From an uncultured Eubacteriales bacterium (GTDB taxonomy: Bacteria; Bacillota; Clostridia; Oscillospirales; Oscillospiraceae), in NCBI GenBank assembly GCA_900315595.1, contig OMZQ01000001.1:111775-175774 (forward strand): a stretch of DNA of 64,000 nucleotides, read 5' to 3'. The notes beneath the pieces were generated by a model. It was given only the letters and a program-made list of their open reading frames with translations. It ran no database searches and was not told the DNA's origin. Below are positions 7,720 to 58,005 of the stretch, one piece after another. A program made the translations under genes and the position numbers. Numbering within the stretch: the first letter of the stretch is position 1; the number at the start of each line of letters is the position of its first letter.

Positions 7720-7725
7720 GTGATT

Positions 7726-9200: not shown

Positions 9201-11861
9201 TTATTCAACGTTTTTCAGCGCTTCATCCAGCGGAATCCGCTTGATCCGGTGGAAATCGATCGCCGTAACCAGGGCGTAGCCGAGGATGACGAACAGGATC
9301 GCAAGCACGCCGCCGGACGGGCTGAGATAGAAGGAGAACCAGCCGTCCATGCGCATCATAAAGATCCGGAAAATCACCTGAATGACCGTATAGCCTGCTG
9401 CAAATCCGATCAGAGCGGAGAACAACACCATAATGGCCGTGGTCAAAATATAGAGCGAGGCGATCTCACTGGTTCGGAAGCCGAGGATCTTGACCATCGA
9501 GATTGCATGCTCGTTCTTCTCTATGATGATCTTGCTGAGCAGATAGAGCAGAATCACGGACAGCGCGAGCAGCGCATATTGGAAAATTCCCATGAAGCCG
9601 CCGATGGAATGATCGAGCTGATCGGTGATCTTCGTAATATCTCTGGCGGTCATCACACTGGCGATTTTGGATTCCGGCAGATCCGCGAGCTCCGTATTCG
9701 AAAAATAGCCGTTGAAGCTCCCGGCGTCCCGATCGAACAGTTGATTGAAGTTTTCATTCGGGAGGAAAAGCGCTACGCCGCCGTCATAGTCAAATATGCC
9801 CATGACCCGGAATTCATAGTCCTTATGCTTGTACTTTTCGGACAGACGGACCGTGTCCCCTGCCTGCAAGCCGTATTTCTGGGACATAGCCCTGGAAACG
9901 CATACCTCGCTGCCGGTCAGACTCTCGCGGATGCTCACGTAACGGCTGCCCGATTCATAGCCGTAAACCGTCACCGACTCGTCGTGCGTCCCGTTTTTCA
10001 AAAGCAGGGACGCAGCGCTGAAGCGTTCAGCCTCCGGCGAATCGACGGTGATCTCCGTTCCGTCCTCATTCTCGGTGTCCGTCAGGAGGTACTGGTACTT
10101 TGCAAACAGCATATCCGGCGCGTTTTGAGCGTAGTGATCCAGCGAATCGGGGAAGCCGAAGGCAAAGCAAAGCATGATTTCGATGAACACGACGCCGAAG
10201 GTAAGGATCAGATAGTTCGGAATATTCTGCAGAAGGATCCGGATGCGGAAGCGGCGCAGAAAGCTCCAGCGCGGAAGACGGCGGGCCTTGGCGCGCTTCG
10301 TCCGTTTCAGATCTCGGCGCAGAAAGCGCAGCGGGCTCAAACGCAGTCTGGAAACGATGACCGTAAGATTGATGCAGAACATCAGAACCAGCGGGATGAT
10401 CGTCGTTTTCACAAGAGCGGCGGGGCTCCAAACCGTCTGATACTTCGGCATGCTGTAGCTGTTGTAGTAAAGGTCCACGGCTACGTCCTTAAAGACCGTA
10501 TAGCCGAGCAGGTTTCCGAGCGCTGCGCCGAGAAGCGTGATGATAACGGGAACCGTCATGTAATGGCGGATCAGCTCGCCCTTCGTAAAGCCGGAGGCAC
10601 GGAGAGTCCCGATGACAGGCGCTTCCTGTTCGATCGTACTGTCGATCGTGACGGCAAAGATAAACGCAATGACAGCGATCAGAATATAGACCAGAATCTC
10701 CGTTCCTGCGGTGTCGCTTTCGATGTCGTCCGGGGCGAAATTGACTGCCTGGTTGAGATAAACGGGAACGTAATCCTCGATTTGAGCGTCCGCCTTTACC
10801 GTCTGCGTCAGCAGGATCTTGAGGAAGTCGTTCGCCCGGTCGGCCTTCTCGTAATCATTCGCCGGTTTCGTTTCGTAGAAATAGGCGTAGGAATAATGCG
10901 TCCGTGCGCCGAGAGCCTCGAAGTCCGCAGGCGTCACCATGCCGACGTCAAAGCCGAAGGCGTCGAACATCAGAGCGTTGTTATTCTCATGGAGCGTGAT
11001 ATAGTTGACGTAGGAGAGCAGGCCGACGATCCGGAAGGTTTTCCTGCCGACTTTCAGGCTGTCGCCAATGCGCAAGCCCACGTTGTCGGCGTGCATCCGG
11101 TCGATTGCGATTTCTCCTTCCGCTTCAGGCGCTCTGCCGGAAAGGAAGCTGGCCCGGTCAACGGGAGAATCACTGCGAAAAACCCGGATCGTTGCATCTG
11201 CGGTACCGTCTCCGCTTAGATCTTCGTCCTCGTTTTTGTAAAAATGCGCATAAACGGTGACGGGGCAGTCCTCGCATTCCTCGTTCAGACTGTATTCCTC
11301 CGCCAGCGCCTCCCACGTTTCGTCTGCAGCTTGTTCGGCCTCCTTGCGGGCGGCCAGTCTGGCATCATGCAGAGCGGTTTGATAGTCTTCTGATTCGGAA
11401 GCGGCTTTCAAGGCGTCCGCATACTGATCCTGTATCGCGGCCTCGATCTGCGCGGAGACTGCGTCCTCGTCCGTCACGCCGTAAGCCTTGCACTGCTCGC
11501 GTACTGTTTCTTCGATTGCGGCCTGAACCGACTTCTCCAGCGCATCCCGGGCGGCCGATTCCGCCGCCTCGTCAGCCTCGCGGTATGCTTCGTCCAGAAA
11601 ATGCTGCCGCAGATCGGCCCGTTTGCCGGAGGATAGATCTGCAAGCAGCTCGTTCGAAGCCTGCTTGTTCAGCTCAAAATTGCCGTCCTCCAGATTGAAT
11701 TCGACGTTTCCGTTTTTCAGCGAAGCCATCATGCTGTCGTGACCGACGTAAACGCCGGAGACCACGCCGATCATAATGACCATGAACAGAAGGATCACAA
11801 GATACTTGCCCAGATCCCGCACAAGCTCACGCGGGATCCGTTTATTCAGCGGGTTTTTCAC
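9201..11861 (-). CDS. ABC transporter permease with two FtsX/MacB-type domains
   Basis: 886 aa. GTG start 9 nt after the ATPase stop, with a GGTGAGGTGA RBS. TM1 is followed by a large extracytoplasmic domain; two FtsX-like 4-TM modules (..GTLRASGFTKGEL.., ..KILGFRTSEI..). Confidence 0.85.
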   Translation of the reverse strand: MKNPLNKRIPRELVRDLGKYLVILLFMVIMIGVVSGVYVGHDSMMASLKNGNVEFNLEDGNFELNKQASNELLADLSSGKRADLRQHFLDEAYREADEAAESAARDALEKSVQAAIEETVREQCKAYGVTDEDAVSAQIEAAIQDQYADALKAASESEDYQTALHDARLAARKEAEQAADETWEALAEEYSLNEECEDCPVTVYAHFYKNEDEDLSGDGTADATIRVFRSDSPVDRASFLSGRAPEAEGEIAIDRMHADNVGLRIGDSLKVGRKTFRIVGLLSYVNYITLHENNNALMFDAFGFDVGMVTPADFEALGARTHYSYAYFYETKPANDYEKADRANDFLKILLTQTVKADAQIEDYVPVYLNQAVNFAPDDIESDTAGTEILVYILIAVIAFIFAVTIDSTIEQEAPVIGTLRASGFTKGELIRHYMTVPVIITLLGAALGNLLGYTVFKDVAVDLYYNSYSMPKYQTVWSPAALVKTTIIPLVLMFCINLTVIVSRLRLSPLRFLRRDLKRTKRAKARRLPRWSFLRRFRIRILLQNIPNYLILTFGVVFIEIMLCFAFGFPDSLDHYAQNAPDMLFAKYQYLLTDTENEDGTEITVDSPEAERFSAASLLLKNGTHDESVTVYGYESGSRYVSIRESLTGSEVCVSRAMSQKYGLQAGDTVRLSEKYKHKDYEFRVMGIFDYDGGVALFLPNENFNQLFDRDAGSFNGYFSNTELADLPESKIASVMTARDITKITDQLDHSIGGFMGIFQYALLALSVILLYLLSKIIIEKNEHAISMVKILGFRTSEIASLYILTTAIMVLFSALIGFAAGYTVIQVIFRIFMMRMDGWFSFYLSPSGGVLAILFVILGYALVTAIDFHRIKRIPLDEALKNVE

Positions 11862-11870
11862 GCGATCACC

Positions 11871-12584
11871 TCACCATTCCAGCTCCGAGGCCGTGATCTT
11901 GTGTTCGTTCCGCTCGTCGGAACGGACCAGGCCGTCCCGGAGCTTGATCACGTGGTCCGCCATGCTGCGGATCGCCTCATTGTGCGTGACCATGATGACG
12001 GTGTTGCCGTACTTTTTGTTGCAGTTTTCGATGAGCTGCAATATCTCCTTTGAGGTTTTGTAGTCCAGCGCGCCGGTCGGCTCGTCGCAGAGCAGAAGAT
12101 CCGGGTTCTTGACGATGGCCCGCCCGATGGAGACCCGCTGCTGCTGACCGCCGGAGAGCTGATTGGGATACTTATACTGATGCTCGGTCAGTCCGAGGAC
12201 GGAAATCAGCTCGTCGAGGTTGACCGCGCTCTTGGACAGATAAGCCCCGACCTCGATATTCTCTTTCGCGTTCAGGTTGGGAATCAGGTTATAGGTCTGG
12301 AACACGTAGCCGAGATGGAGGCGACGGTAGGCCGTCAGGGACTTCTCGTCCATCTCCCGCAGGCGCTCGCCGTTGATCGTAATCGTCCCGGAATCCTGGA
12401 CGTCGATGCCGCCGATGATATTCAGCAGGGTCGATTTGCCCGAGCCGGACGGGCCGAGCAAAACGCAGAACTCCCCTTTTCGGACGGAAAAATTGACGCC
12501 GCGCAGGACCTCCTGCCGCGTCTCGCCGGAGCCGAAGCTCTTTTTCAATTCACTGATTTCAAGAAAATTCGTATCACGTTCCAT
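11871..12584 (-). CDS. ABC transporter ATP-binding protein (MacB/LolD-type)
   Basis: 237 aa. Walker A GPSGSGKST, signature LSGGQQQRV, Walker B LLLCDEPT. GGGAGGA RBS. Confidence 0.9.
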   Translation of the reverse strand: MERDTNFLEISELKKSFGSGETRQEVLRGVNFSVRKGEFCVLLGPSGSGKSTLLNIIGGIDVQDSGTITINGERLREMDEKSLTAYRRLHLGYVFQTYNLIPNLNAKENIEVGAYLSKSAVNLDELISVLGLTEHQYKYPNQLSGGQQQRVSIGRAIVKNPDLLLCDEPTGALDYKTSKEILQLIENCNKKYGNTVIMVTHNEAIRSMADHVIKLRDGLVRSDERNEHKITASELEW

Positions 12585-12600
12585 TGGGTTTCCTCCCGTT

Positions 12601-12678
12601 TTATTTCTTCCAGACGATCACGCAGGCGGCGAGCAGCACGACCGCCATTACGGTCAATATAACAATCAAATCATCCAT
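12601..12678 (-). CDS. Candidate 25-aa hydrophobic micropeptide, first cistron of the ABC operon
   Basis: Read by hand; below the ORF-track size cut-off. ATG GAT GAT ... TAA encodes MDDLIVILTVMAVVLLAACVIVWKK. GGAAAGGA RBS lies 8 nt upstream, and the stop is 16 nt before the ATPase ATG. Confidence 0.4.
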   Translation of the reverse strand: MDDLIVILTVMAVVLLAACVIVWKK

Positions 12679-12755
12679 TTCGCGGTTCCTTTCCGCTCAT
12701 AAACTTAGCTTCTGCTAACTGATCGATTAAACAAATGGCCTCCTCGGAAGCCTTG

Positions 12756-12775
12756 CAGTTAGTTTGTTCTAACTG
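12756..12775. promoter_or_regulatory. Inverted repeat CAGTTAG-N6-CTAACTG just downstream of the -10 box (candidate operator)
   Basis: Perfect 7-bp arms. A third TTCTAAC half-site at 12784-12790 overlaps the -10 hexamer. Confidence 0.35.
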
Positions 12776-12782
12776 TATTTGC

Positions 12783-12811
12783 ATTCTAACACCGCATTGC
12801 TCGTTTGTCAA
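12783..12811 (-). promoter_or_regulatory. Near-consensus sigma-70 promoter of the micropeptide/ABC operon
   Basis: On the minus strand: TTGACA (12811-12806), 17-nt spacer, TAGAAT (12788-12783). Confidence 0.5.
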
Positions 12812-12865
12812 GATGCTCTGGCAAAGAAACCGTGCATTTATCACCGAAATCTTGTTCGAAAGCAA

Positions 12866-12907
12866 GAAAAACCCGCCCCGTCCGCAAATGCGGCAACGGA
12901 GCGGGCG
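12866..12907 (-). terminator. Rho-independent terminator after the anti-sigma gene
   Basis: Minus strand reads CGCCCGCTCCGT...ACGGGGCGGG followed by TTTTT, 14 nt after the stop at 12921. Confidence 0.55.
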
Positions 12908-12920
12908 CTCGTTACAAGGA

Positions 12921-14186
12921 TCAGTGGATCGTATATACCAGCGGGGTTTCCGGCTGCCAACGATCCGTAAAGATCGGCTTCATATAGACGATGCGGTCTG
13001 TGGTGTCAAGATAATAGGTCTCGACGTGCGTCTGATCCTCGTGATACATGGAATCTAAGTTCGTATTGAGACTGCGGCCTGCCTTGTCGTAAAATGAGAT
13101 GGGCCATGCATGATCGCCAAAGATGGAATCCGTCTCCACCAGGAAGGAAACAGCAGACTGATTTCCTTCGATCTTCCGGCCTGCAAAGCTGTAACCGGGA
13201 AATGTCGTTTCACTCTCTCCTGTTTCCAGATCCAACGGGATCCATACGCTCTTGTCCCGCAGCTTTGCACCGAATACAACCAGCTTGATTGAATCTGCCT
13301 CGTAGAAATACGGGCTTTCGGCATAGTAGGTTAAAGCGGAGTCAGTATTATCTTCCCCCAGGCTGATGAGGCCGGAGCTTCCGGCAGAGAACTGCTTGCC
13401 GTCTTCCGTCTCAAAACAGAACTGTAATTGATCCAGCCAGGCGGTGTTGTCTGCGTCCTCCTCCAGATGCAGGGTGATATGCGTCGGATAAATCTCCAAC
13501 TGCTTCAGCGTGAACCTCTGACCGGAAAGCTCCACCGGTTGATCGAGCACCCGAGTTTTCGCCGGGGCGATCATTGTCGTGTCCACGCGGAGCGGGAAGT
13601 CAAAGCGGGCCAACTCCAGATCCGGATCGTCGCGATCCATAACCTGAAGGCGGAAGGTCAGGTACTCCGGGGTCTGCGCCAGAAAGACGAACGCGTGCAT
13701 GAGATCACCCTCGGACTCCTGCGACAAATTGGAAACACCGTAAAAAGAGACGTCGGGTTCCAGAATAACCGACGGGATCGTCGAGATCCTGTGCGGCTCC
13801 TCTGTCTCCAGCCGATAGAATACGTGGAGCTGCTGGTCATCCACGATCAGATATTCCACCGTGACGGTCACACCGTTTTTTGTCTGGCTCTGCCCGTCGA
13901 GCTGAACGTAGTCATTCTGCACGGCAGCTTCCAGCGAGGGGGAAAAGCGCACAGCGCGGACAAGATCGGTCAGGACCGGAATGCGGCTCAGTGCAGAGGC
14001 CACCGGCGTGGACAGATTAACAAGGGCTACGAAGACGGCAAAGACGGCGGCAAGTCCGATCAGCGGACGAATCATGTAACGTTTTCTGGCGCGTCGGCGT
14101 TCCGCCTTCCGAAGAGAAGCGTTCAGGCTGGGGGCTTCCTCCTCCAGCGCGCGGGTCAAAGCCTTGAATTCATCGTTTCGATTCAT
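12921..14186 (-). CDS. Membrane-anchored anti-sigma factor candidate (DUF4179-like extracytoplasmic domain)
   Basis: 421 aa. 4-nt ATGA overlap with the ECF sigma gene. Short charged cytoplasmic N-terminus, one TM (PLIGLAAVFAVFVALV) and a large external domain. Confidence 0.65.
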   Translation of the reverse strand: MNRNDEFKALTRALEEEAPSLNASLRKAERRRARKRYMIRPLIGLAAVFAVFVALVNLSTPVASALSRIPVLTDLVRAVRFSPSLEAAVQNDYVQLDGQSQTKNGVTVTVEYLIVDDQQLHVFYRLETEEPHRISTIPSVILEPDVSFYGVSNLSQESEGDLMHAFVFLAQTPEYLTFRLQVMDRDDPDLELARFDFPLRVDTTMIAPAKTRVLDQPVELSGQRFTLKQLEIYPTHITLHLEEDADNTAWLDQLQFCFETEDGKQFSAGSSGLISLGEDNTDSALTYYAESPYFYEADSIKLVVFGAKLRDKSVWIPLDLETGESETTFPGYSFAGRKIEGNQSAVSFLVETDSIFGDHAWPISFYDKAGRSLNTNLDSMYHEDQTHVETYYLDTTDRIVYMKPIFTDRWQPETPLVYTIH

Positions 14187-14653
14187 TGGTTTTCCTCCTC
14201 TCCAAGCTCCAGACGAAGGAGCTTCAACGCTCTTCTCTGCTGGGAAGCGACAGTTCCCTGCGGCAGATGCAGGACCTCCGCAGTTTGCGCTAAGGTCAGC
14301 TCTGAAAAGAATCGAAGCGTAATGACGTCCTTCAAATCGCGTGGAAGCTTCTGCAAGGCATCACGGAGCGGGAGACTGTCAAATTCCTCCGCCGAAGCCT
14401 CCGGCGCCTCCTCGATCGGAACCAGGCGCTTCTGCCTGCGAAGCTCGTTATAGCATTCGTTCATGACGATCCGCGTCATCCACGTGTCGAACAGGGACGG
14501 ATCACGCAGCTTTCGATGGGAGCATAATCCCTTATAAACCGCCTCATCCAGGACGTCCATCGCCTGCGAGTGACTTCCCATGAGCAGGATCGCAGTCTTG
14601 TAAAGCCTGGTTCGCAGGCCTTCCACACGCAGGGCATATTCTTCATTGGTCAA
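14183..14653 (-). CDS. ECF-type RNA polymerase sigma-70 family factor
   Basis: 156 aa. Region 2 (DVLDEAVYK...FDTWMTRIVMNECYNELRR) and region 4 HTH (LTLAQTAEVLHLPQGTVASQQRRALKLL). TTG start with an AAGGGGAG RBS. Confidence 0.85.
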   Translation of the reverse strand: MTNEEYALRVEGLRTRLYKTAILLMGSHSQAMDVLDEAVYKGLCSHRKLRDPSLFDTWMTRIVMNECYNELRRQKRLVPIEEAPEASAEEFDSLPLRDALQKLPRDLKDVITLRFFSELTLAQTAEVLHLPQGTVASQQRRALKLLRLELGEEENQ

Positions 14654-14821
14654 GCCTCATCTCCCCTTTCATCCATTAGACGCACAAGAACGGCATTTTT
14701 ATTTCGAGCAGACAAAATATTTTCGCAAAAGCAAATCGTGCCTGCCCATAGAAGATTACAGGGGACGATGGCCCGTTCGGGCTGCATCATCCCCTGCATC
14801 GTGTGTTTCGTGACGCTATCG

Positions 14822-16162
14822 TCAATACCGCTCCACCGGGAAGCGGAAGAACTCGGCCAGGGCTTCGAGGGTTTTGGCGTGGCGGCCGCGGAGGACGGCG
14901 AAGTGTGGCTCGAAGCCGGACTTGACGCTATCCTCAACAATGGCGCGGACCGGGTTGTCGGTTTTGACTACGACAGAGGTTCCCGTGAACTGTTTCGGCT
15001 TATCCAGGATCTCGCCCTCGGCCAGGAAGAAGCGAAAGCTTCCGTCCGGCTCGCGGCCGATGCGGAAGATCGTGGCCGTCGGGAAGGCCTCGCAGCCGAA
15101 GTCCATCGCCGGACCGATCTTTCGGTTCGGGTGAACGCCGACGGTCGCCCCGGTGTCCTTCCGAGCCAGCGAGCAGGCCGCCGCGCCGCAATGCCAGAAG
15201 GTCAGGGTGTTTTCGTCCTCATTCAGGGAAACCGGGTCGCCGAAGAAGGTCGGCTGACCGGAGAGCTGCATGCCGATCCACATGGACAGAGCGCCGTAGA
15301 CGTCTGCCTCGCAGGCGGCGGCAACGCCGTCGTCATTGAGCATGGAAAGAACGGTGCAGACAGGCGTGCCGTAGGCCGTGAAGAAATCCGGCCAGCAGCG
15401 GGAGGCCAGCGCGCCGATGCCCTGCTCCCGCACGTATTCCGAATAGGCGCGGTAGAGCCGTGCATGGCCGAGGCGGTTGACCTCCGGCGTGTGCGAAAAG
15501 CCGCAGGTGGCGCAGGCGGTCTTTTGCAGGGCCTCAGCGCAGTCCTCCTCGGAATAGGTCTTTGCACGTTCGATCAGCTCCCTGGCCTCGATGGCGGCAA
15601 GCTCGACGCCGAAGACGCTCATCAGCTCAGCGTCAAGAGCGCGGCCAAAGCCGAAGCCCTGGGGCGTATGACCCACGGCGGCCATCCGAAGTCCCTTCAT
15701 GGCGGTCTTGACGCGGGCGGCCTCAATTGCACACTGGAGGGTATTTACTGCAGTCGGCTCGTTCGGCGCACCGTAGACGTAGACGAAGGGCCTGTCGTCA
15801 AAGGCACGAAGTGCGTTGGCGGCAGAATAGGCTCCGGTCAGCGAGTTCAGCCGCAGACGGCCGCCGTCGATGACGGGCTCGCGCAGGGTCCAGAGGATGA
15901 TCGGGCAATCGAAGCGGCGCAGGACCTCGGACATATAGGCCGCGTTGGCAAAGGTCAGATTCTGGTAAACGATCAGATCGGGGTGCAGGGGCTCGAGATA
16001 GGCGCGGAGCTTGTCCACGGACAGAAGCATCTCCTCCGGGAAGACAAAGCCCGGCTCGAGCGTGTGCAGAAGCTCCTTCGATTGGGCAAACGCATCCTCG
16101 GCGCTGGGCATATGAAAAGTCGGCACGCCGACCGGAACGTAAACAGGCGTAAAGGGTTTCAT
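14822..16162 (-). CDS. L-fucose/L-arabinose isomerase superfamily protein (substrate unknown)
   Basis: 446 aa from ATG 16162, which follows AAAGGAGG; the ORF-track start at 16234 has no RBS. FucI-like C-terminal domain features (ACEADVYGALS, FGDP, TFWHCG). Confidence 0.75.
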   Translation of the reverse strand: MKPFTPVYVPVGVPTFHMPSAEDAFAQSKELLHTLEPGFVFPEEMLLSVDKLRAYLEPLHPDLIVYQNLTFANAAYMSEVLRRFDCPIILWTLREPVIDGGRLRLNSLTGAYSAANALRAFDDRPFVYVYGAPNEPTAVNTLQCAIEAARVKTAMKGLRMAAVGHTPQGFGFGRALDAELMSVFGVELAAIEARELIERAKTYSEEDCAEALQKTACATCGFSHTPEVNRLGHARLYRAYSEYVREQGIGALASRCWPDFFTAYGTPVCTVLSMLNDDGVAAACEADVYGALSMWIGMQLSGQPTFFGDPVSLNEDENTLTFWHCGAAACSLARKDTGATVGVHPNRKIGPAMDFGCEAFPTATIFRIGREPDGSFRFFLAEGEILDKPKQFTGTSVVVKTDNPVRAIVEDSVKSGFEPHFAVLRGRHAKTLEALAEFFRFPVERY

Positions 16163-16189
16163 ATTGATCCTCCTTTTGTTTCTTGGGTA

Positions 16190-16218
16190 ATCATAACCCG
16201 CGCAAGTCTGCTTGTCAA
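16190..16218 (-). promoter_or_regulatory. Sigma-70 promoter of the isomerase gene
   Basis: Minus strand: TTGACA (16218-16213), 17-nt spacer, TATGAT (16195-16190). Confidence 0.5.
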
Positions 16219-16271
16219 TCGTTTTTCCGCGCAATCAGGTCATGATGGAGCTCGGAGTACTGGATTTTCTA

Positions 16272-16300
16272 TTGACTTTCACTCCGGAATTGGCTAAACT
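16272..16300 (+). promoter_or_regulatory. Sigma-70 promoter of the transketolase operon
   Basis: TTGACT (16272-16277), 17-nt spacer, TAAACT (16295-16300), divergent from the isomerase promoter. Confidence 0.45.
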
Positions 16301-16317
16301 GGTTCATAGACATAACG

Positions 16318-17163
16318 ATGGAGGAAATCGAATTGGATCAAAATCTAAAACTGATTGCCCGGGATATTCGCTGTGACGTCATTCAGGCGATCGGGCACCT
16401 GGGCGTCGGTCACATCGGCGGCTGTCTTTCTGTGGTCGAGCTGCTGACCGTCCTTTACTTTGAGGCCATGCGGATCGATCCGAAGAACCCCAAGCTCGAG
16501 GGACGGGACCGCTTCATCTGCTCCAAGGGCCACGCGGGTCCCGCCGTCTATGCGGCGCTGGCGAACCGGGGCTTTTTTGACAAGTCAATGCTGCTGACCC
16601 TGAACCAGGGCGGCACGAACCTGCCCAGCCACTGCGATATGAACCGAACCCCCGGCGTGGATATGACGACCGGCTCCCTCGGACAGGGCTTTTCCTGCGC
16701 CGTCGGCGCGGCTCTGGGCTCAAAGCTGGCAAAGGACGGGGCCACTGTCTATACCCTGATCGGCGACGGCGAAAGCCAGGAAGGCCAGATCTGGGAGGCG
16801 GCGATGTTCGCTTCCGCCAAGCATCTGGATAACCTGATCGGATTCACCGACTACAACAAGCTCCAGATCGACGGAACCGTTGCCGAGGTCAACGACGTCG
16901 CTCCGCTCAACGAGAAATGGGCCGCTTTCGGCTGGAACGTATTGGAAGCTGCAGACGGCAACGACATTGCCCAGGTCTCCGACGCGGTTCGCCGGGCGAA
17001 AGCAAACCGGGGCAGCGGAAAACCGACGATGGTCATTCTGCACACGAAGAAGGGCTGCGGGATGAAATGGGCTGAGGACTTGGGTCCGGCCAACCACAAC
17101 GTCAAGGTGCCGGCGGAGGTCGCAGAGGCGGCAATCCGCGCCCTGAGAGAGGAGGCCCTGTAA
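16318..17163 (+). CDS. Transketolase, N-terminal (TPP/PP-domain) subunit
   Basis: 281 aa. GHIGGCLS, SKGHAGPAVYA and GSLGQGFS...GDGESQEGQIWEA motifs of split transketolases. Start could be ATG 16318 or TTG 16330. Confidence 0.9.
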   Translation: MEEIELDQNLKLIARDIRCDVIQAIGHLGVGHIGGCLSVVELLTVLYFEAMRIDPKNPKLEGRDRFICSKGHAGPAVYAALANRGFFDKSMLLTLNQGGTNLPSHCDMNRTPGVDMTTGSLGQGFSCAVGAALGSKLAKDGATVYTLIGDGESQEGQIWEAAMFASAKHLDNLIGFTDYNKLQIDGTVAEVNDVAPLNEKWAAFGWNVLEAADGNDIAQVSDAVRRAKANRGSGKPTMVILHTKKGCGMKWAEDLGPANHNVKVPAEVAEAAIRALREEAL

Positions 17164-18086
17164 TGCAGATGCGTGAAGGATATGCCGAAGCCTTGGGCGA
17201 GCTGATGGAACGCGATGCGCGCGTGGTCTTATTGGATGCCGACCTGGGCAAGGCCAGCGGGACCCTCGGTCTGCGCAAGCGTTTCCCCGATCGGATCTTT
17301 GACTGCGGCGTAGCGGAACAGAATATGGCCTCAATCGCAGCCGGTCTGGCCAGCTACGGCTTCAAGCCCTGGATCGAGAGCTTTACCCCCTTTGCCTCCC
17401 GGCGGATTTGCGACCAGATCGCGATCTCAATCTGCTATGCGGGAATGAACGTGAAGATCATGGGCTCCGACCCCGGCATCACCGCCGAGCTCAACGGCGG
17501 CACCCACATGAGCATGGAGGATATCGGCGTTCTGCGCTCGATTCCCGGCATCGTGATTTTCGAGCCTGTGGACGCAGTCCAGCTCCGCGCAGCCATGCCC
17601 GTGCTGGACGCATACGAGGGTCCGGTCTATCTGCGCCTTGCAAGAGGCGAACAGCCCGCGATCTTCCCGGAGGATTATCAATTCGATCTCTTCCGGGCCG
17701 ACGTTCTGCGTGAGGGTTCTGACCTGTCAATCTTCGTCAGCGGCATCCAGACCCGCGACTGTCTGGACGCGGCGGCAGAGCTGGCCGAAAGCGGGATCTC
17801 CTGCGAGGTCGTAAACGTCCACACGATCAAGCCGATCGACCGTGAGACCGTTATCGCCTCCGCCCGAAAGACCGGCTCCGTGCTGACGGTGGAAAACCAC
17901 AACGTGATCGGCGGTCTGCGCTCCGCCGTGCTGGAAGCGCTTGCGCTGGAACGAATTCCGGTCCGCGCCGTCGGCGTAGAGGACCGCTTTGGCGAGGTTG
18001 GAAAGCTCCCCTATCTGCGCGAGGCGATGGGGCTGACGAAGGAACACGTGATCGAGGCCGCGAAGGAAGCGGTACGAACGAAATAA
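17163..18086 (+). CDS. Transketolase, C-terminal (Pyr-domain) subunit
   Basis: 307 aa. TAATG overlap with the N-terminal subunit. DCGVAEQNM and GGTHMSMEDIG motifs. Confidence 0.9.
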   Translation: MQMREGYAEALGELMERDARVVLLDADLGKASGTLGLRKRFPDRIFDCGVAEQNMASIAAGLASYGFKPWIESFTPFASRRICDQIAISICYAGMNVKIMGSDPGITAELNGGTHMSMEDIGVLRSIPGIVIFEPVDAVQLRAAMPVLDAYEGPVYLRLARGEQPAIFPEDYQFDLFRADVLREGSDLSIFVSGIQTRDCLDAAAELAESGISCEVVNVHTIKPIDRETVIASARKTGSVLTVENHNVIGGLRSAVLEALALERIPVRAVGVEDRFGEVGKLPYLREAMGLTKEHVIEAAKEAVRTK

Positions 18087-18099
18087 AGGAGTATTTACA

Positions 18100-18576
18100 A
18101 TGAAGCTTGCAATCGGAAGCGATAAATCCGGCTTTGCCGTCAAGGAGGCCGTCAAGGCCTATCTGTCCGGTACCGAACACGAAGTGGACGATCTCGGCAC
18201 CGTCGATCTGGAGGCTGTCCATCCCTATTACCAGGTGGCAAGCGAGGTCGCGCCGCGCGTTCAGGACGGAACCTATGACCGGGCCATCCTGATCTGCGGC
18301 ACCGGCGCGGGGATGAGCGTCGTCGCCAATAAATTCAAGGGCGTCTATGCCGTCGCCTGCGAGAGCCTCTACGCCGCCAAGATGGCGCGCGCCATCAACA
18401 ACGCGAACGTCCTTTGTCTGGGCGGCTGGATCGTCGGACCGGAAATGGCCGTTGAGCTGGTCAAGGCCTTCCTGGCCACCGACTGGTGCCAGGATCTGGA
18501 GCCCTGGCGGGCCGATAACATGCACAAATTTGCCGCGAAGGTCCAGGAAATTGAGGACGGCGTCTATGGGGCTTGA
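18100..18576 (+). CDS. RpiB/LacA/LacB-family sugar(-phosphate) isomerase
   Basis: 158 aa with an AAGGAG RBS. ILICGTGAGMSVVANK with the catalytic Cys, plus a C-terminal extension. Confidence 0.85.
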   Translation: MKLAIGSDKSGFAVKEAVKAYLSGTEHEVDDLGTVDLEAVHPYYQVASEVAPRVQDGTYDRAILICGTGAGMSVVANKFKGVYAVACESLYAAKMARAINNANVLCLGGWIVGPEMAVELVKAFLATDWCQDLEPWRADNMHKFAAKVQEIEDGVYGA

Positions 18577-19663
18577 GTTCTTCTACAGTCAGCCGGTCCG
18601 CATCTGGTTCGGGGCCGGGCAGTTTGACCGGCTCGGTGAGATCCTAAATGAGCTTGGGCTCAAGCACTGCGTGGCCGTCTGCGACCCGTTTTTGAAGATC
18701 AAGCTGGAAGCTCTGTCCACACAAAACAAGGCGATCTGCGCCGTCTTCTCCGGCGTGGAGGAAAATCCCCAGCTTTCCGGGGTTGAGGCCGTGATCCGTC
18801 TGATCCGGGAGACCGGAGCGGACGGCGTGATCGGCGTCGGCGGCGGCAGCACGATGGACACCGCCAAATTCGCCGCAGCCGCTGCAAGTGCCGATGGGGA
18901 AGCCATCGACTGCTTCCGCGGCGCCTGCCCCTTCCCTGCCGTCCATATCCCGGTTCTGACCGTTCCCACGACAGCCGGAACCGGGAGCGAGGTCACGCAG
19001 GTCTCCGTGATCAGCCACGGCAGGGAGAAAAAGACGATTAACAACCCCGCCTTCATGCCGAAGGCGGCTGTCGTCGATCCCCTGCTGACCCTTTCCGTGC
19101 CGAAGCGAACGACGATGAACACCGGCCTGGACGCGCTTGCGCATGCGCTGGAGGGCTATTGGAGCGTCAACCACCAGCCGATCTCCGACCAGATGGCAAA
19201 GGAGGCCGTGCGCCTCGTTCTGAACAATCTGGAACAGGCCTGGCGGGACGGCGGCGATCCGGAGGCACGGACGAATCTTTCGCTTGCCGCCCTGTTCGGC
19301 GGTTTGGCCTTTGCGCTGCCCAAGACGGCCGGCTCCCACGCCTGCTCCTATCCCCTGTCCGAGGATTACGGTCTGCCCCACGGTGAGGCCTGCGCCTTCA
19401 CCCTGGACAGCTTCGTCCGGATCAACGCTGACGCGCGTCTGGAGGCTCTCTGCCGAAGCGCGGGTCTGTCCGGGACCGATGAGCTTGCCGAACGGATCGC
19501 CGCGCTCAAGCGGCTGGGCGGGCTGCGGACGCGGCTCTCCGACCTCGGCGAAGTCGATCTGGACAAGCTGGCGCACGACGCCGCAGTCCATCCCCTGATG
19601 CAAAACAACCCCGTCCGGATGGACGAGGCCGCACTGCGTCGGATGTTTGAAGCGCTGGCATGA
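18566..19663 (+). CDS. Iron-containing (group III) alcohol dehydrogenase
   Basis: 365 aa from ATG 18566, an 11-nt overlap with the isomerase gene. GVGGGSTMDTAK nucleotide loop and metal-site His residues (LDALAHALE, HGEACA). The ORF-track start at 18347 lies inside the upstream gene. Confidence 0.85.
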   Translation: MGLEFFYSQPVRIWFGAGQFDRLGEILNELGLKHCVAVCDPFLKIKLEALSTQNKAICAVFSGVEENPQLSGVEAVIRLIRETGADGVIGVGGGSTMDTAKFAAAAASADGEAIDCFRGACPFPAVHIPVLTVPTTAGTGSEVTQVSVISHGREKKTINNPAFMPKAAVVDPLLTLSVPKRTTMNTGLDALAHALEGYWSVNHQPISDQMAKEAVRLVLNNLEQAWRDGGDPEARTNLSLAALFGGLAFALPKTAGSHACSYPLSEDYGLPHGEACAFTLDSFVRINADARLEALCRSAGLSGTDELAERIAALKRLGGLRTRLSDLGEVDLDKLAHDAAVHPLMQNNPVRMDEAALRRMFEALA

Positions 19664-20574
19664 AGCAGTCGAAAAACGCCGCTATGATGCTGGCAATGGT
19701 GGTTGCCTGGTCGGTCTTCTATACGGTATCGAAGGTCACGGTGGACGCCACCGGCTCCGTCTTTGCCGCCGGTTTTCTGCTGCGCGTCGCGGCCTTGATC
19801 TTTCTGACGGTCCAGCTCCTCGCTGACGGAAACTTCAAGCTGTTGTTCCATCCCGGAAAGGCCGCATGGATTCTGGTTTTGATCGGCGTTTTCGGTTTTC
19901 TGCTGGATCTGTTTGCCAATCTCGGCTACGCGGGCGGCTCGCTCAGCACCGGTACGGCCCTGCTCAAGACGGACGTTCTGATGGTGAATCTGATCACGGT
20001 GCTCGTCTATCGCAAAAAGCTCTACGAAACGGACTGGCTCGGTACGGCGGTGATGCTGGTCGGCGTATTGCTGGTGCTTGGGATCGACTTTTCCGGCTTC
20101 TCTCTGCATCTGACCGATCTGTTTTTCCTCGCCAGCGCCGCCTGCGTGACTGCCAACGCCTTTCTGATCAAGGCCGCGCAGGACAAGTACGGCAAGACCA
20201 CAGACGAGATCTCCTATTACAACAACCTTGTCGTTCTGATCCTCTTTGGTCTGTTCACCCTGGTCCGGGGAGACCTGAACGGCCTGAACGCCAGAGTCGG
20301 CTCCGGCTTCTGGCCGCTGGTACTGCTGGGCGGTTTCGCCCAGGCCGGTATCTATTTCTTCTATTACCGGAATCTGAAACGAAACGAGGTCTGGGTGGTC
20401 AAGCTCTGGCTGCTTGGCATGCCGATCGTCAGCTCTCTGATCGGCGCGGTCTTTCTGCACGAGCGGCTCACGCTCTGGAAGATCGTGGGAATCGCGGTCG
20501 TCCTGCTCGGCGCGGGGATCATCCTCTTACGCGGCAGACTGAACGCAAGGCGAAACGGCGGAGCCGAATCATAA
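19660..20574 (+). CDS. EamA/DMT-family transporter
   Basis: 304 aa. ATGA overlap with the ADH gene. Ten hydrophobic segments arranged as two EamA repeats. Confidence 0.8.
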   Translation: MKQSKNAAMMLAMVVAWSVFYTVSKVTVDATGSVFAAGFLLRVAALIFLTVQLLADGNFKLLFHPGKAAWILVLIGVFGFLLDLFANLGYAGGSLSTGTALLKTDVLMVNLITVLVYRKKLYETDWLGTAVMLVGVLLVLGIDFSGFSLHLTDLFFLASAACVTANAFLIKAAQDKYGKTTDEISYYNNLVVLILFGLFTLVRGDLNGLNARVGSGFWPLVLLGGFAQAGIYFFYYRNLKRNEVWVVKLWLLGMPIVSSLIGAVFLHERLTLWKIVGIAVVLLGAGIILLRGRLNARRNGGAES

Positions 20575-20620
20575 ACCGTACCGGGTGCGAAAACAAGCGT
20601 TTTCGCACCCGGTACGGTTT
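20573..20620. terminator. Bidirectional rho-independent terminator
   Basis: 22-bp perfect stem AAACCGTACCGGGTGCGAAAAC / GTTTTCGCACCCGGTACGGTTT with a 4-nt loop. It exactly fills the gap between the convergent stops. Confidence 0.75.
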
Positions 20621-21358
20621 TTATGAAAAGAAGGATCGAATCGCTTCTGTCACCTGATCGAGGTGTCTGTCATAGCAGTGGGTATCGCCCTCGATGGGTA
20701 CGAGGGTGCAGTTCCGGTAAAGCGCGGCTGTCTGCTCGCCCCAACGGAACGGGACCGTGGCGTCGGCTGTGCCGTGGATCAGAAGCACCGGACCGTTGAA
20801 GCTCCGTGCCGCCGCATCGGCGTCGATCGTCTGGGCGGAGCGGATATAATTGCCGTCCAGGATCCGCTGCGGACCGAGGTGGATCTCATCCGGGACGTTG
20901 GCCGGGTCAAAGACGCCGCCGAGGATCGAACCCATTCGCGCCCCATCCGGGATCATATAGGCCGGAGAGAGCAGGATCAGGCCGTCCACACGGTCACGCC
21001 TGCAAGAGCCTGCCAGCATTGCGGTCAGACCGCCCTGTGAATGTCCGCCAAGCCACAACTCCGAAACAAAGTCCAGACCGGCGGCGTAGTCGATCGCGGT
21101 CACTGCGTTGGAGACCCATTTGGGGATCGTGTGGTCCCGGAACGAGCCGCCGCTTTGCCCGTGACCGTAAAGATCGAGGCGAAGCGTGGCAAAGCCGCAA
21201 TCACGCAGAGACCGGCAGACCGCAAGGATATGCCGCTCCTCCTTATTCCCGGTGAAGCCGTGGAGGATCACGGCGAGCGGTTGTTTCTCCGGCGCTTCGG
21301 CAGGCCGCTCCAGAACACAGTCCAGATGAACGCCTTGATCAAAAAGAGAAACGCGCAT
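20621..21358 (-). CDS. Alpha/beta hydrolase (serine esterase/peptidase S9-like)
   Basis: About 245 aa. HGFTGN oxyanion region and GHSQGG nucleophile elbow. ATG 21358 follows GGAAGGAG. Confidence 0.8.
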   Translation of the reverse strand: MRVSLFDQGVHLDCVLERPAEAPEKQPLAVILHGFTGNKEERHILAVCRSLRDCGFATLRLDLYGHGQSGGSFRDHTIPKWVSNAVTAIDYAAGLDFVSELWLGGHSQGGLTAMLAGSCRRDRVDGLILLSPAYMIPDGARMGSILGGVFDPANVPDEIHLGPQRILDGNYIRSAQTIDADAAARSFNGPVLLIHGTADATVPFRWGEQTAALYRNCTLVPIEGDTHCYDRHLDQVTEAIRSFFS

Positions 21359-21377
21359 CAAAAGCTCCTTCCTTCGG

Positions 21378-22151
21378 CTACAGTACGCCGAACAGCTCCA
21401 GGATCACGCGGATCAGAAGCAGAGACAGGACGACCAGAATGACGGGACGGACGATTTTAGAACCGTTTTTGATCGCTAATCCCGAGCCGACGTAATGCCC
21501 GGCGATCGAGAAGCAGGCTGCGATCAGGCCGATCCAGATCAGAACCTTTCCCGCCAGAAGCGAGGTCGTCAGAGCGGCAAGATTCGATGAGAAGTTGGCA
21601 ACCTTCACGTTTCCGGAGGCTGTGCGAACGTCCAACTTTGCAAGGGTACAATAGGCCAGCAGCAGGAAGGTCCCGGTGCCTGGGCCGTAGAAGCCGTCAT
21701 AGACGCCGATCAGAAACGTACTGATCCAAACGATGGCGCGGCGCTTCCCCACTGCCATCTCCCCTTCCGTCTCCGGCAGAGATTTCTGGCGCAGCAGGAT
21801 CAGAGCGGACAAAGGAAGGACGACGACCAGGACGTATTTCAGGATCCGTTCGTCCACGGCAAGCTGGATCTTCGTTCCGAAGAATGCGCCGGCCATTGCA
21901 AGCAGAGCCGAGGGAATGGCCAGCCCCCAGTTGACGTAGCCTTTCTTCAGATATCGGGTTGTAGAGACCGCTGTGCCAATACAGGAGGACATCTTGTTCG
22001 TGCCGAGGGCAAAGTGCGTGGGCAAGCCGGAGAGCAGGTAGATCGGAACCGAGATGATCCCTCCCCCGCCGCCGATGGAGTCCACAAAGCCCGCCGCAAA
22101 AACACCGACCCCGATGATCAGCACGACCCAGATCGGATAACCGGAAATCAC
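21378..22151 (-). CDS. TauE/SafE (DUF81) family anion exporter
   Basis: 257 aa, 7-8 TM, with FVDSIGGGGG and GFYGPGTGTF repeats typical of TauE/SafE. GTG start overlaps the glgA stop (GTGA). Confidence 0.85.
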   Translation of the reverse strand: MISGYPIWVVLIIGVGVFAAGFVDSIGGGGGIISVPIYLLSGLPTHFALGTNKMSSCIGTAVSTTRYLKKGYVNWGLAIPSALLAMAGAFFGTKIQLAVDERILKYVLVVVLPLSALILLRQKSLPETEGEMAVGKRRAIVWISTFLIGVYDGFYGPGTGTFLLLAYCTLAKLDVRTASGNVKVANFSSNLAALTTSLLAGKVLIWIGLIAACFSIAGHYVGSGLAIKNGSKIVRPVILVVLSLLLIRVILELFGVL

Positions 22152-23887
22152 GGTTTGATCTCCAGATACAGGCTGCGGTAAAGCATTGCGCTGCGTTCCC
22201 AGGAGACGTCCTTTTCCATATCGCGGACGACCATTTCATCCCAGCGGGCGCGTTCGGTAAAGAACAGCGTTTTTGCGCGGTTGATCGCGTCGAGCAGAAG
22301 GCCGGATTCATAGCGGTCAAAGGTGAAGCCGTTCCCTTCGCCGGTATAGGTGTTAAAGGGCTGAACGGTATCCTTGAGGCCGCCGGTCTCACGGACGACG
22401 GGGACGGTGCCGTAGCGCATGGCGATCAGCTGGGTCAGACCGCAGGGCTCAAACAGGGACGGGACCAGAAGCGCGTCAGCGGCTGCATAGATCCGGTGCG
22501 CGCGGGTTTCATCATACATGATGTTGGAGCAGACGCTGCCGCGATAGTTGTTTTCAAACCAGCGGAAGGAATCCTCATAGCGCTGATCGCCGGTGCCGAG
22601 GACGACGAACTGCGTGTTGCCGTCGAGCATCTGCGGAAGAATCGAATTGACGAGATCCAGACCCTTCTGATCGGTCAGCCGGGAGATCAGACCGATCATC
22701 ATCTTTCCCTCGTTGACCTCCAAACCGAGCTCCTCCTGCAGCGCACGCTTGTTTGCCCGCTTCTGCGCAACGGCATTGGAGCAGGAATAGTTTGCAGGGA
22801 TCAGGGCGTCGGACGCGGGGTCCCAGAGCGTCGTCTCGATGCCGTTGACGATGCCGCTGAGCTTCCCGCTGTGATAGCGGAGATGCGCGTCAAGTCCGTC
22901 TCCGTAGAACGGATCCTGGATCTCCCAGGCATAGGTCTGGCTGACCGTGGTGACGCGGTCCGCGTAGGCGATTCCGCCCTTGAGCAGATTGGCGTCCTGG
23001 TCGCCCTGCTTGAGCGCGCCCATCTCAAAGACGGAATCGGGCAGGCCGGTCCAGTATTGGATCGTCGGGACGTTGTAGACGCCCTGGAAGCGAAGATTAT
23101 GGATCGTCAGGATCGTTCTGGCGGAGGCAACCGGCGTATCGGCAAAGAGGGTGCGCAGATAGACCGGAACCAGCGACGCCTGCCAGTCGTGAACGTGGAT
23201 CACGTCGGGGATCCAGTTCATATAGTTCAGCGCAGCCAGAGCGGCCTTGGAGAAAAAGCAGAACCGGGGAATATCGTCGATCAGGTTCGTATACGGGTTG
23301 CCCGTGGAGAAGAACTCGTCGTTTTCAATGAAGTCATAGACGACGCCGTCCCACACGTATTCCATGATACCGACGTGGAAGGACCGTCCGTCTGCGCAGA
23401 GGTCCATGCGGAAGGTCCCGCGCCAGACCATCTTCTCGTGGAACTGCTGCGGAATGCAGCGATACTTGGGGAGAATCACCTTGACGTCGCAGTTGAGTCG
23501 AGAAAGCGCTTTGGGCAGGGCATACATCACGTCGCCAAGTCCGCCTGTCTTGACGAAGGGGTAACACTCGGAGCCGATGAAGGCGACGCTTCTGCGGGGC
23601 TGGGGCAGCTCGGGAGCCTGCTCCTCTGCGACGGGTACGGGTTCGGCGGCGGGCGCCTTCTTCGCGGCAGCCTTGCGGGACGGCTGCTTTGCGGCAGGCG
23701 TCTTCTTCGGCTCGGCGGGGGCGTTTTCAGCGGTCTTTTTCTTCGGCTCTGCGGTCTTTTTCGCGGTCGTTCTGCGCGCCGTTCTCTTTGCAGGCTTTTC
23801 TGCCTCGGTCTTATCGGTAAGGACGGAACGCTCGTTCAGGGGCTTATCATCCGTCGTTTTTTCTTTTTTTGTTTTCTGATTCGGCAT
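22148..23887 (-). CDS. glgA: Glycogen/starch synthase with about 100-aa Lys/Ala/Pro-rich N-terminal extension
   Basis: 579 aa with an AAAGGAGA RBS. The GT5 core starts near residue 100 (FIGSECYPFVKTGGLGDV) and continues to EPCGLTQL. Residues 1-98 are basic low-complexity sequence (AKKTAEPKKKTAENAPAEPKKTPAAKQPSRKAAAKKAPAAEP). Confidence 0.9.
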   Translation of the reverse strand: MPNQKTKKEKTTDDKPLNERSVLTDKTEAEKPAKRTARRTTAKKTAEPKKKTAENAPAEPKKTPAAKQPSRKAAAKKAPAAEPVPVAEEQAPELPQPRRSVAFIGSECYPFVKTGGLGDVMYALPKALSRLNCDVKVILPKYRCIPQQFHEKMVWRGTFRMDLCADGRSFHVGIMEYVWDGVVYDFIENDEFFSTGNPYTNLIDDIPRFCFFSKAALAALNYMNWIPDVIHVHDWQASLVPVYLRTLFADTPVASARTILTIHNLRFQGVYNVPTIQYWTGLPDSVFEMGALKQGDQDANLLKGGIAYADRVTTVSQTYAWEIQDPFYGDGLDAHLRYHSGKLSGIVNGIETTLWDPASDALIPANYSCSNAVAQKRANKRALQEELGLEVNEGKMMIGLISRLTDQKGLDLVNSILPQMLDGNTQFVVLGTGDQRYEDSFRWFENNYRGSVCSNIMYDETRAHRIYAAADALLVPSLFEPCGLTQLIAMRYGTVPVVRETGGLKDTVQPFNTYTGEGNGFTFDRYESGLLLDAINRAKTLFFTERARWDEMVVRDMEKDVSWERSAMLYRSLYLEIKP

Positions 23888-24012
23888 AATCGGGAATCTC
23901 CTTTCGAAAGATCCAATCGTTCTGTAATGGGGATTGCTGCATATTATAGTGTAAAATTTCGAATTGTCAAGCTGTTCGTTTTTTCCAGTTTTCCCGGTTT
24001 TCGTAAAATAAT

Positions 24013-50174: not shown

Positions 50175-50201
50175 AGAACCTCCTTCTGAGGCCGAATGCA
50201 T

Positions 50202-51446: not shown

Positions 51447-51447
51447 G

Positions 51448-51894: not shown

Positions 51895-51918
51895 ATCTCT
51901 GTATCCTCCGAAAGGGAT

Positions 51919-56821: not shown

Positions 56822-56847
56822 ATCGGATGATACCTCTTCTATTCAGG

Positions 56848-57981: not shown

Positions 57982-58005
57982 GCGGATCAGTCTCCTTTCA
58001 GCGCT

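Follow-up and report, generated by a model that had tools for sequence, protein, structure and literature searches.

A candidate sulfoglycolytic gene cluster occupies positions 14822-20574 of a 64-kb stretch of contig OMZQ01000001.1 (hereafter, the window) from an uncultured Clostridia bacterium. On the minus strand is a gene (14822-16162) for a 446-amino-acid isomerase of the SqvD/SftI type, matching Fucose_iso_C and the model for the sulfoquinovose (SQ) isomerase SftI. Divergent from it, across an intergenic region of 155 bp, are five plus-strand genes for the SqwG-like N subunit of a split transketolase with a predicted thiamine diphosphate-binding domain (16318-17163; Pfam Transketolase_N, 160 bits), its SqwH-like C subunit (17163-18086; Transket_pyr and Transketolase_C), a SqwI-like isomerase of the RpiB/LacAB family (18100-18576; PF02502 LacAB_rpiB, 146.7 bits), an SqwF/TauF-like alcohol dehydrogenase of the iron type (18566-19663; Pfam Fe-ADH, nearest structure BkTauF), and, last in the operon, an EamA-family drug/metabolite transporter (DMT) (19660-20574; two Pfam EamA repeats). 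The five are closely packed: a TAATG junction with a 1-nt overlap, a 13-nt gap between the transketolase C subunit and the PF02502 gene, an 11-nt overlap, and an ATGA overlap. The 3' end of the operon is formed by a bidirectional intrinsic terminator (20575-20618) with a perfect 20-bp stem and T runs on both strands. Several kilobases upstream, also on the plus strand, lie genes for a YihQ-family glycoside hydrolase of family 31 (GH31; 5734-7719; NF007746/PRK10426 and residue alignment; type A below) and a GPH-family glycoside:cation symporter (7720-9138; TIGR00792 gph, 285.7 bits against a cutoff of 231). An earlier reading of the DNA, made from the sequence alone, had given exact coordinates, overlaps and gaps, and its gene families agreed with Pfam and NCBIfam; its positions for the GH31-GPH pair (5734-9138) and for a TauE gene (21378-22151) were likewise accurate.

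Both transcription units are preceded by a promoter-like site: TTGACA-17-TATGAT (11/12 consensus matches) at 16218..16190 on the minus strand for the isomerase gene and TTGACT-17-TAAACT (9/12) at 16272..16300 on the plus strand for the operon. The promoter scan was weak on its own, with 5 sites against 2.3 ± 1.6 expected. In an alignment of the intergenic regions of related loci (73 sequences), the -35 and -10 hexamers of both sites and the ribosome-binding site of the isomerase gene were kept in at least 70%, and the plus-strand promoter showed a conserved -35 TTGACAA and -10 TA.A.T; the pair of divergent promoters proposed earlier was thereby borne out. A search for an operator in the divergent intergenic region gave just one weak 9-nt inverted repeat. 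As the sequence-only reading had also noted, the cluster lacks genes for a kinase, an aldolase, and a regulator, and the window proteins scanned included none either; at 24-60 kb of the window, nothing related to SQ metabolism was found among the 20 larger open reading frames (ORFs) scanned.

This gene content is that of the published sulfoglycolytic transketolase (sulfo-TK) pathway, which comprises SqvD, the split SqwGH, the PF02502 protein SqwI, the metal-dependent alcohol dehydrogenase SqwF, and an exporter (PMC9594981; PMC12890257). The FucI homologue SqvD (= SftI) is the first enzyme of the sulfo-TK, sulfoglycolytic transaldolase (sulfo-TAL), and sulfoglycolytic Embden-Meyerhof-Parnas 2 (sulfo-EMP2) pathways alike (PMC9594981; PMC12890257). 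The sequence-only reading had recognized a sulfo-TK logic yet called the composition noncanonical and the FucI-like isomerase an addition to the minimal pathway. Neither reservation held, since SqvD/SftI opens the published route, the window isomerase matches the SftI model over its full length, and the gene set is the published SqvD, SqwG, SqwH, SqwI, and SqwF. The central idea fared better: an R-A-D-R transketolase, a TauF-like dehydrogenase, an SftI-type isomerase, membership of the SqwI family, and synteny in 80 related loci all speak for it. The cluster thus very probably encodes an isethionate-forming sulfo-TK pathway for SQ in an uncultured, Oscillospiraceae-type Clostridia bacterium of the cow rumen.

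In the pathway we propose, an SQ glycoside would enter by the GPH symporter and be cut by the GH31, and the SqvD-type isomerase would turn SQ into sulfofructose. The split SqwGH-like transketolase would then move C1-C2 to glyceraldehyde-3-phosphate, giving xylulose-5-phosphate and 4-deoxy-4-sulfoerythrose; the RpiB-like SqwI would isomerize the latter to sulfoerythrulose, and a second round of the transketolase would leave sulfoacetaldehyde. The TauF/SqwF-like dehydrogenase would reduce this to isethionate, which the EamA/DMT transporter would carry out of the cell. A kinase and an aldolase would be unneeded because the sulfonate replaces phosphate. Enzyme activities, transport direction, and the substrate of the GH31 are predictions from sequence throughout. 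The cluster of Clostridium sp. MSTE9 (Liu et al. 2021, as relayed in PMC9594981 and PMC12890257) consists, in those accounts, of SqvD, SqvB, SqwGH, SqwI, SqwF, SqwE, and YihQ. As far as it is described there, it shares with the window a FucI-like SQ isomerase, a split transketolase, a PF02502 isomerase, a metal-dependent alcohol dehydrogenase, and a YihQ-family GH31, as well as the lack of a kinase and an aldolase and the expected product isethionate. By the same accounts, the two differ in that MSTE9 has a TauE-type SqwE where the window operon has the EamA/DMT protein, and has SqvB (DUF4867), which the window does not; in addition, the window GH31 is without Arg301 and Tyr508.

The isomerase matched NCBIfam NF048012 (“sulfoquinovose isomerase SftI”) over profile positions 5-438 of 443 with 387 bits and is a candidate SqvD/SftI-type enzyme that would convert SQ to 6-deoxy-6-sulfofructose. 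No solved structure of an SqvD-type isomerase was detectable by sequence search; an AlphaFold model of the protein (predicted local distance difference test [pLDDT] score, 76.7) had as its best solved folds AraA (template modeling [TM] score, 0.72) and FucI (TM score, 0.68). The identical isomerase protein was found on 17 contigs. The six shown were metagenome assemblies, several of which belong to PRJEB21624 and a STEW19 sample; we take these to be cow-rumen studies.

Sulfofructose transketolases carry the residues RAFDR where phosphate-sugar transketolases carry RSFHR (Borusak et al., PMC11659671). Aligned with the split transketolase of Carboxydothermus (6YAJ), the C subunit of the window kept R4 and R161 but had Ala31 in place of Ser and Asp103 in place of His, such that the phosphate-orienting RSFHR of pentose-phosphate transketolase was not matched; the RAFDR call rests on the four positions read (R4, A31, D103, and R161). 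The R-A-D-R set was present in 68 of 69 related sequences. The predicted head-group site therefore matches the sulfofructose type and not the phosphate type. A second split transketolase pair lies a few kilobases from the sulfo-TK operon in two related loci (L007, 1-1307; L016, 585-2436), adjoining a malic enzyme gene in L007, and may be the housekeeping enzyme.

The RpiB-like protein narrowly missed the rpiB equivalog TIGR01120 (136.4 against a cutoff of 138.65) and passed the RpiB subfamily model PRK05571 (140.2 against 135). Its translation contains the catalytic Cys loop ILICGTGAG, as previously read, and of its 158 residues, those after residue 129 fall outside the alignments with RpiB structures. 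Three segments (GSDKSG, RAINNAN, and the C-terminal QDLEPWR) were at least 95% conserved across 63 RpiB-like homologues, and QDLEPWR belongs to a conserved C-terminal segment that is not RpiB. Two His residues of RpiB structures are replaced in it, by the Lys of GSDKSG and by the Ile of RAINNAN. This His pair presumably serves RpiB in phosphate binding and ring opening, and its loss would fit an acyclic sulfonated tetrose as substrate. PF02502 is the family named for SqwI (PMC9594981), and the window protein can be placed in the SqwI family as a putative isomerase of 4-deoxy-4-sulfoerythrose to 4-deoxy-4-sulfoerythrulose.

These residues bear on the most conservative account of the cluster, by which an ordinary pentose-phosphate split transketolase and RpiB merely sit beside unrelated sugar genes. 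The best general family matches, “transketolase” and “ribose-5-phosphate isomerase B”, do suggest as much, and so does the passing score with PRK05571. We nevertheless consider this account highly improbable: the Ser and His of the phosphate-type RSFHR are replaced, the RpiB-like protein scores below the rpiB equivalog cutoff and has a C-terminal third that aligns with no RpiB structure, the five genes are translationally coupled and include a TauF-like reductase and an exporter, the synteny with SqvD, YihQ, and DUF4867 extends across 80 species, and L007 and L016 possess their separate transketolase pair nearby.

The dehydrogenase had by far its best solved relative in 6JKO/6JKP (262 bits; runner-up at 155 bits, a margin of 107 bits), with 41% identity to 6JKO over 362 residues. 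6JKO is the sulfoacetaldehyde reductase BkTauF of Bifidobacterium kashiwanohense, for which the active-site residues have been described (PMC6616044). Of these, the window dehydrogenase keeps D192, F252, T257, H261, and H275; its metal ligands are conserved, as are F252 and T257, the putative substrate residues. Q196 is replaced by His and F265 by Tyr, both of which are reported among TauF homologues (PMC6616044). A sulfoacetaldehyde reductase is thus its closest structure, with the active site kept, and a SqwF/TauF-like reduction of sulfoacetaldehyde to isethionate is the likely function. BkTauF itself serves the assimilation of nitrogen from taurine and not sulfoglycolysis.

A scan with the isomerase over one genome per GTDB species returned at least 457 stretches with relatives, of which the best 80 (70-96% isomerase identity), nearly all from metagenome-assembled genomes (MAGs) of ruminant-gut Clostridia, were analyzed together with the window; Clostridium sp. 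MSTE9 was not represented among these 80. Many contigs end early, so that counts over these 81 loci are minimums. The nearest genomes are labeled Clostridia, Oscillospiraceae, Ruminococcaceae, or “Candidatus Limivicinus” (“Ca. Limivicinus”), as given by MAG labels. The transketolase N subunit was encoded in 77/81 loci, the C subunit in 71/81, the RpiB-like isomerase in 65/81, the alcohol dehydrogenase in 56/81, EamA in 53/81, a ROK/MarR regulator in 39/81, and DUF4867 (SqvB/SftX) in 30/81. The full order in relatives was DUF4867-ROK-EamA-ADH-RpiB-TKC-TKN (ADH, alcohol dehydrogenase; TKC and TKN, transketolase C and N subunits), followed by the divergent isomerase and then a GH31 module, with DUF4867 downstream of EamA and ROK. 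The neighborhood comparison thus recovered the same divergent core in 80 related loci, accompanied by YihQ (31 loci), DUF4867 (30 loci), and ROK (39 loci); YihQ and the DUF4867 protein SqvB are the usual neighbors of sulfo-TK genes (PMC9594981; PMC12890257). Gene content and order, the diagnostic residues, and the synteny with a canonical sulfoquinovosidase and SqvB in sister species are direct observations.

A canonical YihQ, with Arg, Trp, and Tyr (R/W/Y) at the sulfonate-binding positions 301, 304, and 508, flanks the core in 31 of the related loci (type B below), and the substrate of the core is tied to SQ because sister species carry this canonical sulfoquinovosidase. No positions separating type A from type B loci were found in any of the six core proteins, and isomerase identity was 76% between the two groups and 78-80% within them; therefore, core pathway and substrate would be the same in both.

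Five observations weigh against a sulfo-TK assignment of the window. First, the 387 bits of the isomerase fall below the SftI equivalog cutoff of 700. Such a score is not unexpected, because the sulfo-TK-type isomerase of Faecalicatena shares just 32% identity with Bacillus SftI (PMC11659671). Second, hidden Markov model (HMM) scores taken by themselves would label the RpiB-like protein an RpiB. Third, the ROK regulator and DUF4867 (SqvB) of relatives had zero matches across the 64 kb; the ROK-DUF4867 end is lost from the window or was never present there, and the terminator now stands at that place. Fourth, a TauE-type SqwE is absent from the operon, which ends in EamA/DMT instead. Fifth, in alignments, the window GH31 has Q283 at the position of R301 and F489 at that of Y508.

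The last point deserves closer attention, as the recognition motif of YihQ is Q/E-R-W-Y (Q288, R301, W304, and Y508; PMC12780224). Passing the NCBIfam YihQ equivalog NF007746 (PRK10426) with 601 bits against a cutoff of 553, the window GH31 is a YihQ-clade protein, as had been proposed, and it aligned over its full length with the GH31_13 sulfoquinovosidases YihQ of Escherichia coli (5AED) and SftG of E. rectale (6PNR) with 414-416 bits. With both it shares the catalytic Asp pair (D388 and D453) and equivalents of Q288 (Q270) and W304 (W286); it departs from both in the change of Arg301 to Gln, of Tyr508 to Phe, and of Gly to Thr at position 350 of the window GH31. Of the earlier statement that the sulfonate-binding residues are lacking, the part on R301 and Y508 was correct, whereas W304 is kept. 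Because Arg301 and Tyr508 are missing, release of SQ by the window organism is not assured; the protein is presumably a sulfoquinovosidase or a related glycosidase.

Two GH31 types were distinguished among the related loci. Type A, with 67-71% identity to the window GH31 and Gln, Trp, and Phe (Q/W/F) at the three positions, was found in 26 genome loci plus the window, with a GPH symporter as partner; type B, with 33-38% identity to the window GH31 and canonical R/W/Y, was found in 31 genome loci. The partners of type B are known from the sole locus checked, L072 (canonical YihQ at 11354-13360, partners at 13523-15241), as a fragment of an aldose-1-epimerase (a YihR-like mutarotase) and a major facilitator superfamily (MFS) transporter. 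The GPH gene adjoins the type A GH31 in nearly all related loci, and in relatives, the pair abuts the isomerase gene or has only a PNP_UDP_1 gene between. The GPH family also includes YihO and YihP of E. coli; the window symporter presumably imports the glycoside that the GH31 cleaves. Metagenomes searched with the window GH31 yielded 32 type A loci, with the sulfo-TK core wherever the flank sufficed, and most type A loci, from the 26 genomes and the 32 metagenome matches combined, adjoin this core; in at least 57 loci besides the window, the conserved variant takes the place of YihQ. In four loci (L030, L033, L046, and L049), type A directly follows the isomerase gene, in the slot that type B has elsewhere, and in two of these it lies within 3 nt of it. 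The two types may represent alternative gateways, each module bringing a separate importer. They occur together in genome locus L082 and, side by side, in metagenome loci L100 and L103-L105.

Gln at the position of Arg301 extended well beyond this clade. Among the more distant metagenome matches, GH31s with Gln, Trp, and Tyr (Q/W/Y) were located inside textbook sulfo-TAL loci with a transaldolase, an NAD_binding_2 (sulfolactaldehyde-reductase-like) reductase, DUF4867, SqvD, TauE, ROK, and GPH, and one of these proteins scored 622 bits to E. coli YihQ; further Q/W/Y GH31s were found in sulfo-TK-like loci of other lineages. Arg or Gln at the position of Arg301 covaried with Gly or Thr at position 350 of the window GH31: Thr was present in 59/59 type A proteins and 20/20 Q/W/Y proteins of sulfoglycolysis context, and Gly was present in 34/34 type B proteins. 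Among representatives at 50% identity, position 350 was Gly in ~36 of 44 Arg-types and Thr in ~55 of 71 Gln-types. Glu351 had been considered as the covariation partner of Arg301 and was rejected, the wider family coupling Gly/Thr at 350 instead. R277, a candidate compensating basic residue in the variant, was conserved within the close clade only. By these patterns, the missing Arg appears as a recurrent, coupled alternative within sulfoglycolysis clusters and not as the sign of another sugar. Our text searches of the literature found no description of a Gln-type YihQ; a distant GH31 clade, SqgH, recognizes SQ without the R/W/Y motif (PMC12780224).

The substrate of the variant GH31 could be some other naturally occurring SQ glycoside or a related sugar. 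A second option is that its pocket for the sulfonate is uncharged. A distinct specificity is possible because the variant takes the canonical YihQ slot in some species and sits beside YihQ in 5 loci. We thus advance only tentatively, as a proposal that may well prove wrong, that the GH31-GPH module belongs to a large YihQ-family class within sulfoglycolysis clusters, marked by Arg301 to Gln and Gly to Thr (in the rumen clade also by Tyr508 to Phe), that may differ in specificity.

The variant GH31 is also what would most favor a transketolase pathway for a nonsulfonated 6-deoxy or 6-substituted hexose (for example, from quinovose via acetaldehyde to ethanol) with the GH31 as its gateway, close to the undescribed pathway that the sequence-only reading had offered as its alternative. 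Gln and Phe stand where Arg301 and Tyr508 bind the sulfonate, the variant is a conserved form with a GPH symporter of its own, and in L082, L100, and L103-L105 it accompanies a canonical YihQ with which it is maybe nonredundant. The core enzymes argue otherwise: they are the same in canonical and variant loci, with no group-specific positions, the transketolase retains the two Arg residues of the head-group site along with the A/D pair of the sulfofructose type, and the dehydrogenase is TauF-like with the TauF substrate-site residues kept. An exporter as the final operon gene also suits an anionic end product better than ethanol, and Gln-type GH31s occur within textbook sulfo-TAL loci too. Such a pathway is in our view quite unlikely, and the earlier alternative found no support, the core enzymes being the same beside canonical YihQ. 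Nor does the GH31 difference argue for another sugar, since the same core operon adjoins a canonical R/W/Y YihQ in 31 sister species.

A further possibility is that the sulfo-TK core has lost its gateway in this lineage, such that the organism uses nothing but free SQ set loose by other bacteria of the rumen and the GH31-GPH pair serves an unrelated glycoside. A 5.7-kb insertion parts this pair from the isomerase gene in the window, leaving the GH31 7 kb from the core; the region 9201-14653 encodes an extracytoplasmic function (ECF) sigma factor, a DUF4179 anti-sigma factor, and a MacB/FtsX-type ATP-binding cassette (ABC) transporter. This insertion would fit a lost gateway, as would the absence of SqvB and ROK from the window, the seemingly damaged module described next, and the rumen Caproiciproducens that have sulfo-TK genes and no known sulfoquinovosidase (PMC13219744). 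We judge the possibility very unlikely, as relatives carry the variant GH31 and GPH genes directly after the isomerase gene (L030, L033, L046, and L049), in the canonical YihQ slot, and the association also appeared in metagenome loci retrieved by the GH31 itself. This module was found in L003 (8320-11159), a STEW19 scaffold with the identical isomerase, in which the GH31 is cut to 472 amino acids and the GPH gene is split into ORFs of 137 and 334 amino acids; either the module has decayed in a single strain or the assembly is faulty here. Another type A locus, L089 (CAVGWF010000016.1), encodes a type A GH31 and a GPH symporter along with an Oscillospiraceae-type isomerase (70% identity) and comes from a bin titled “Escherichia coli isolate ... 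cleanbin”; it is probably a misbinned contig.

Returning to the isethionate-forming sulfo-TK pathway, its exporter is presumably the EamA/DMT protein, encoded in the same operon position in 53/81 loci. The SQ cluster of Faecalicatena encodes a DMT permease, too, proposed as a possible sulfonate exporter (PMC11659671). The TauE/SafE-family protein encoded nearby (21378-22151) had been cited as support for sulfo-TK and is probably irrelevant to it. Its gene sits past the terminator in a convergent glgA-tauE-hydrolase unit (20621-23970) that has its own perfect 12/12 consensus promoter (23943-23970); beyond the window, TauE occurred in just 1/80 related loci. Four TauE proteins from within sulfoglycolysis loci shared 30-59% identity among themselves, and the window TauE resembled none of them significantly. 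A role as SqwE was rejected on these three grounds (the separate glgA unit, 1/80 loci, and no similarity to cluster-embedded TauE), and the gene is probably unrelated and near the cluster by chance. The α/β hydrolase of the unit (20621-21361) was considered as a sulfolipase and likewise rejected, given its place in the glgA unit and its presence, beyond the window, in 1/80 related loci. The unit is common only to the window and a 96%-identical relative (L010); it encodes a glycogen synthase with a 100-amino-acid, Lys/Ala/Pro-rich N-terminal extension, the YfcA-like TauE-family membrane protein, and the α/β hydrolase, and is probably unrelated to SQ.

SQ is made on a gigaton scale, and forage lipids bring it to the rumen. 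Isethionate from sulfo-TK is turned into hydrogen sulfide by sulfite-respiring bacteria. In cow-rumen microcosms, SQ was degraded to isethionate, with ~7 mM formed from 10 mM SQ (2026; PMC13219744). Sulfo-TK genes were encoded there by “Ca. Limivicinus” (Oscillospiraceae), Caproiciproducens, and Sphaerochaetaceae, sqwG, sqwH, and sqwI each lay within the top 15% of transcripts of every SQ-enriched species, and the pathway was present in 35.5% of the 313 Limivicinus genomes (PMC13219744). The window has the same habitat and the same isethionate-ending variant as these rumen clusters, with its family placement taken from MAG labels; three of our related loci, with 70-74% isomerase identity to the window, are labeled “Ca. 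Limivicinus.” That study assigned yihQ by BLAST and phylogenetic placement and did not single out the species of the window or the variant GH31; a search of its text for sulfonate-binding residues or their motif found none. The window accordingly represents one more rumen Clostridia member of an already described sulfo-TK guild, and the cluster itself is no discovery; the only unusual part is the nearby glycosidase with its seemingly differently built sulfonate-binding pocket. Two consequences follow for annotation. Homology-based counts of yihQ, and models such as PRK10426, take in many GH31s without the sulfonate-binding Arg (here also without the Tyr), and since the transporter conserved in the operon of this clade is of the DMT family rather than TauE, a search for “SqwE” will overlook the exporter or assign it wrongly.

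The bifurcated sulfo-TK/TAL cluster of Faecalicatena sp. DSM22707 has in common with the window a RAFDR-type transketolase, an SqwI-like isomerase, a sulfoacetaldehyde reductase, and a DMT permease (PMC11659671); its enzymes show 55% identity or more to those of MSTE9. Transaldolases, a candidate NAD-dependent sulfoquinovosidase of the GH188 type, and an ABC importer belong to the Faecalicatena cluster only and not to the window (PMC11659671). Elsewhere in the window are neighbors unrelated to the cluster: a second EamA gene (46388-47320), a gene set of the poly-γ-glutamate capsule type (48486-53208; GGT, PGA_cap, and a Mur-ligase-like protein), and a pair of topoisomerase IV/gyrase-like A and B genes (54578-60000).

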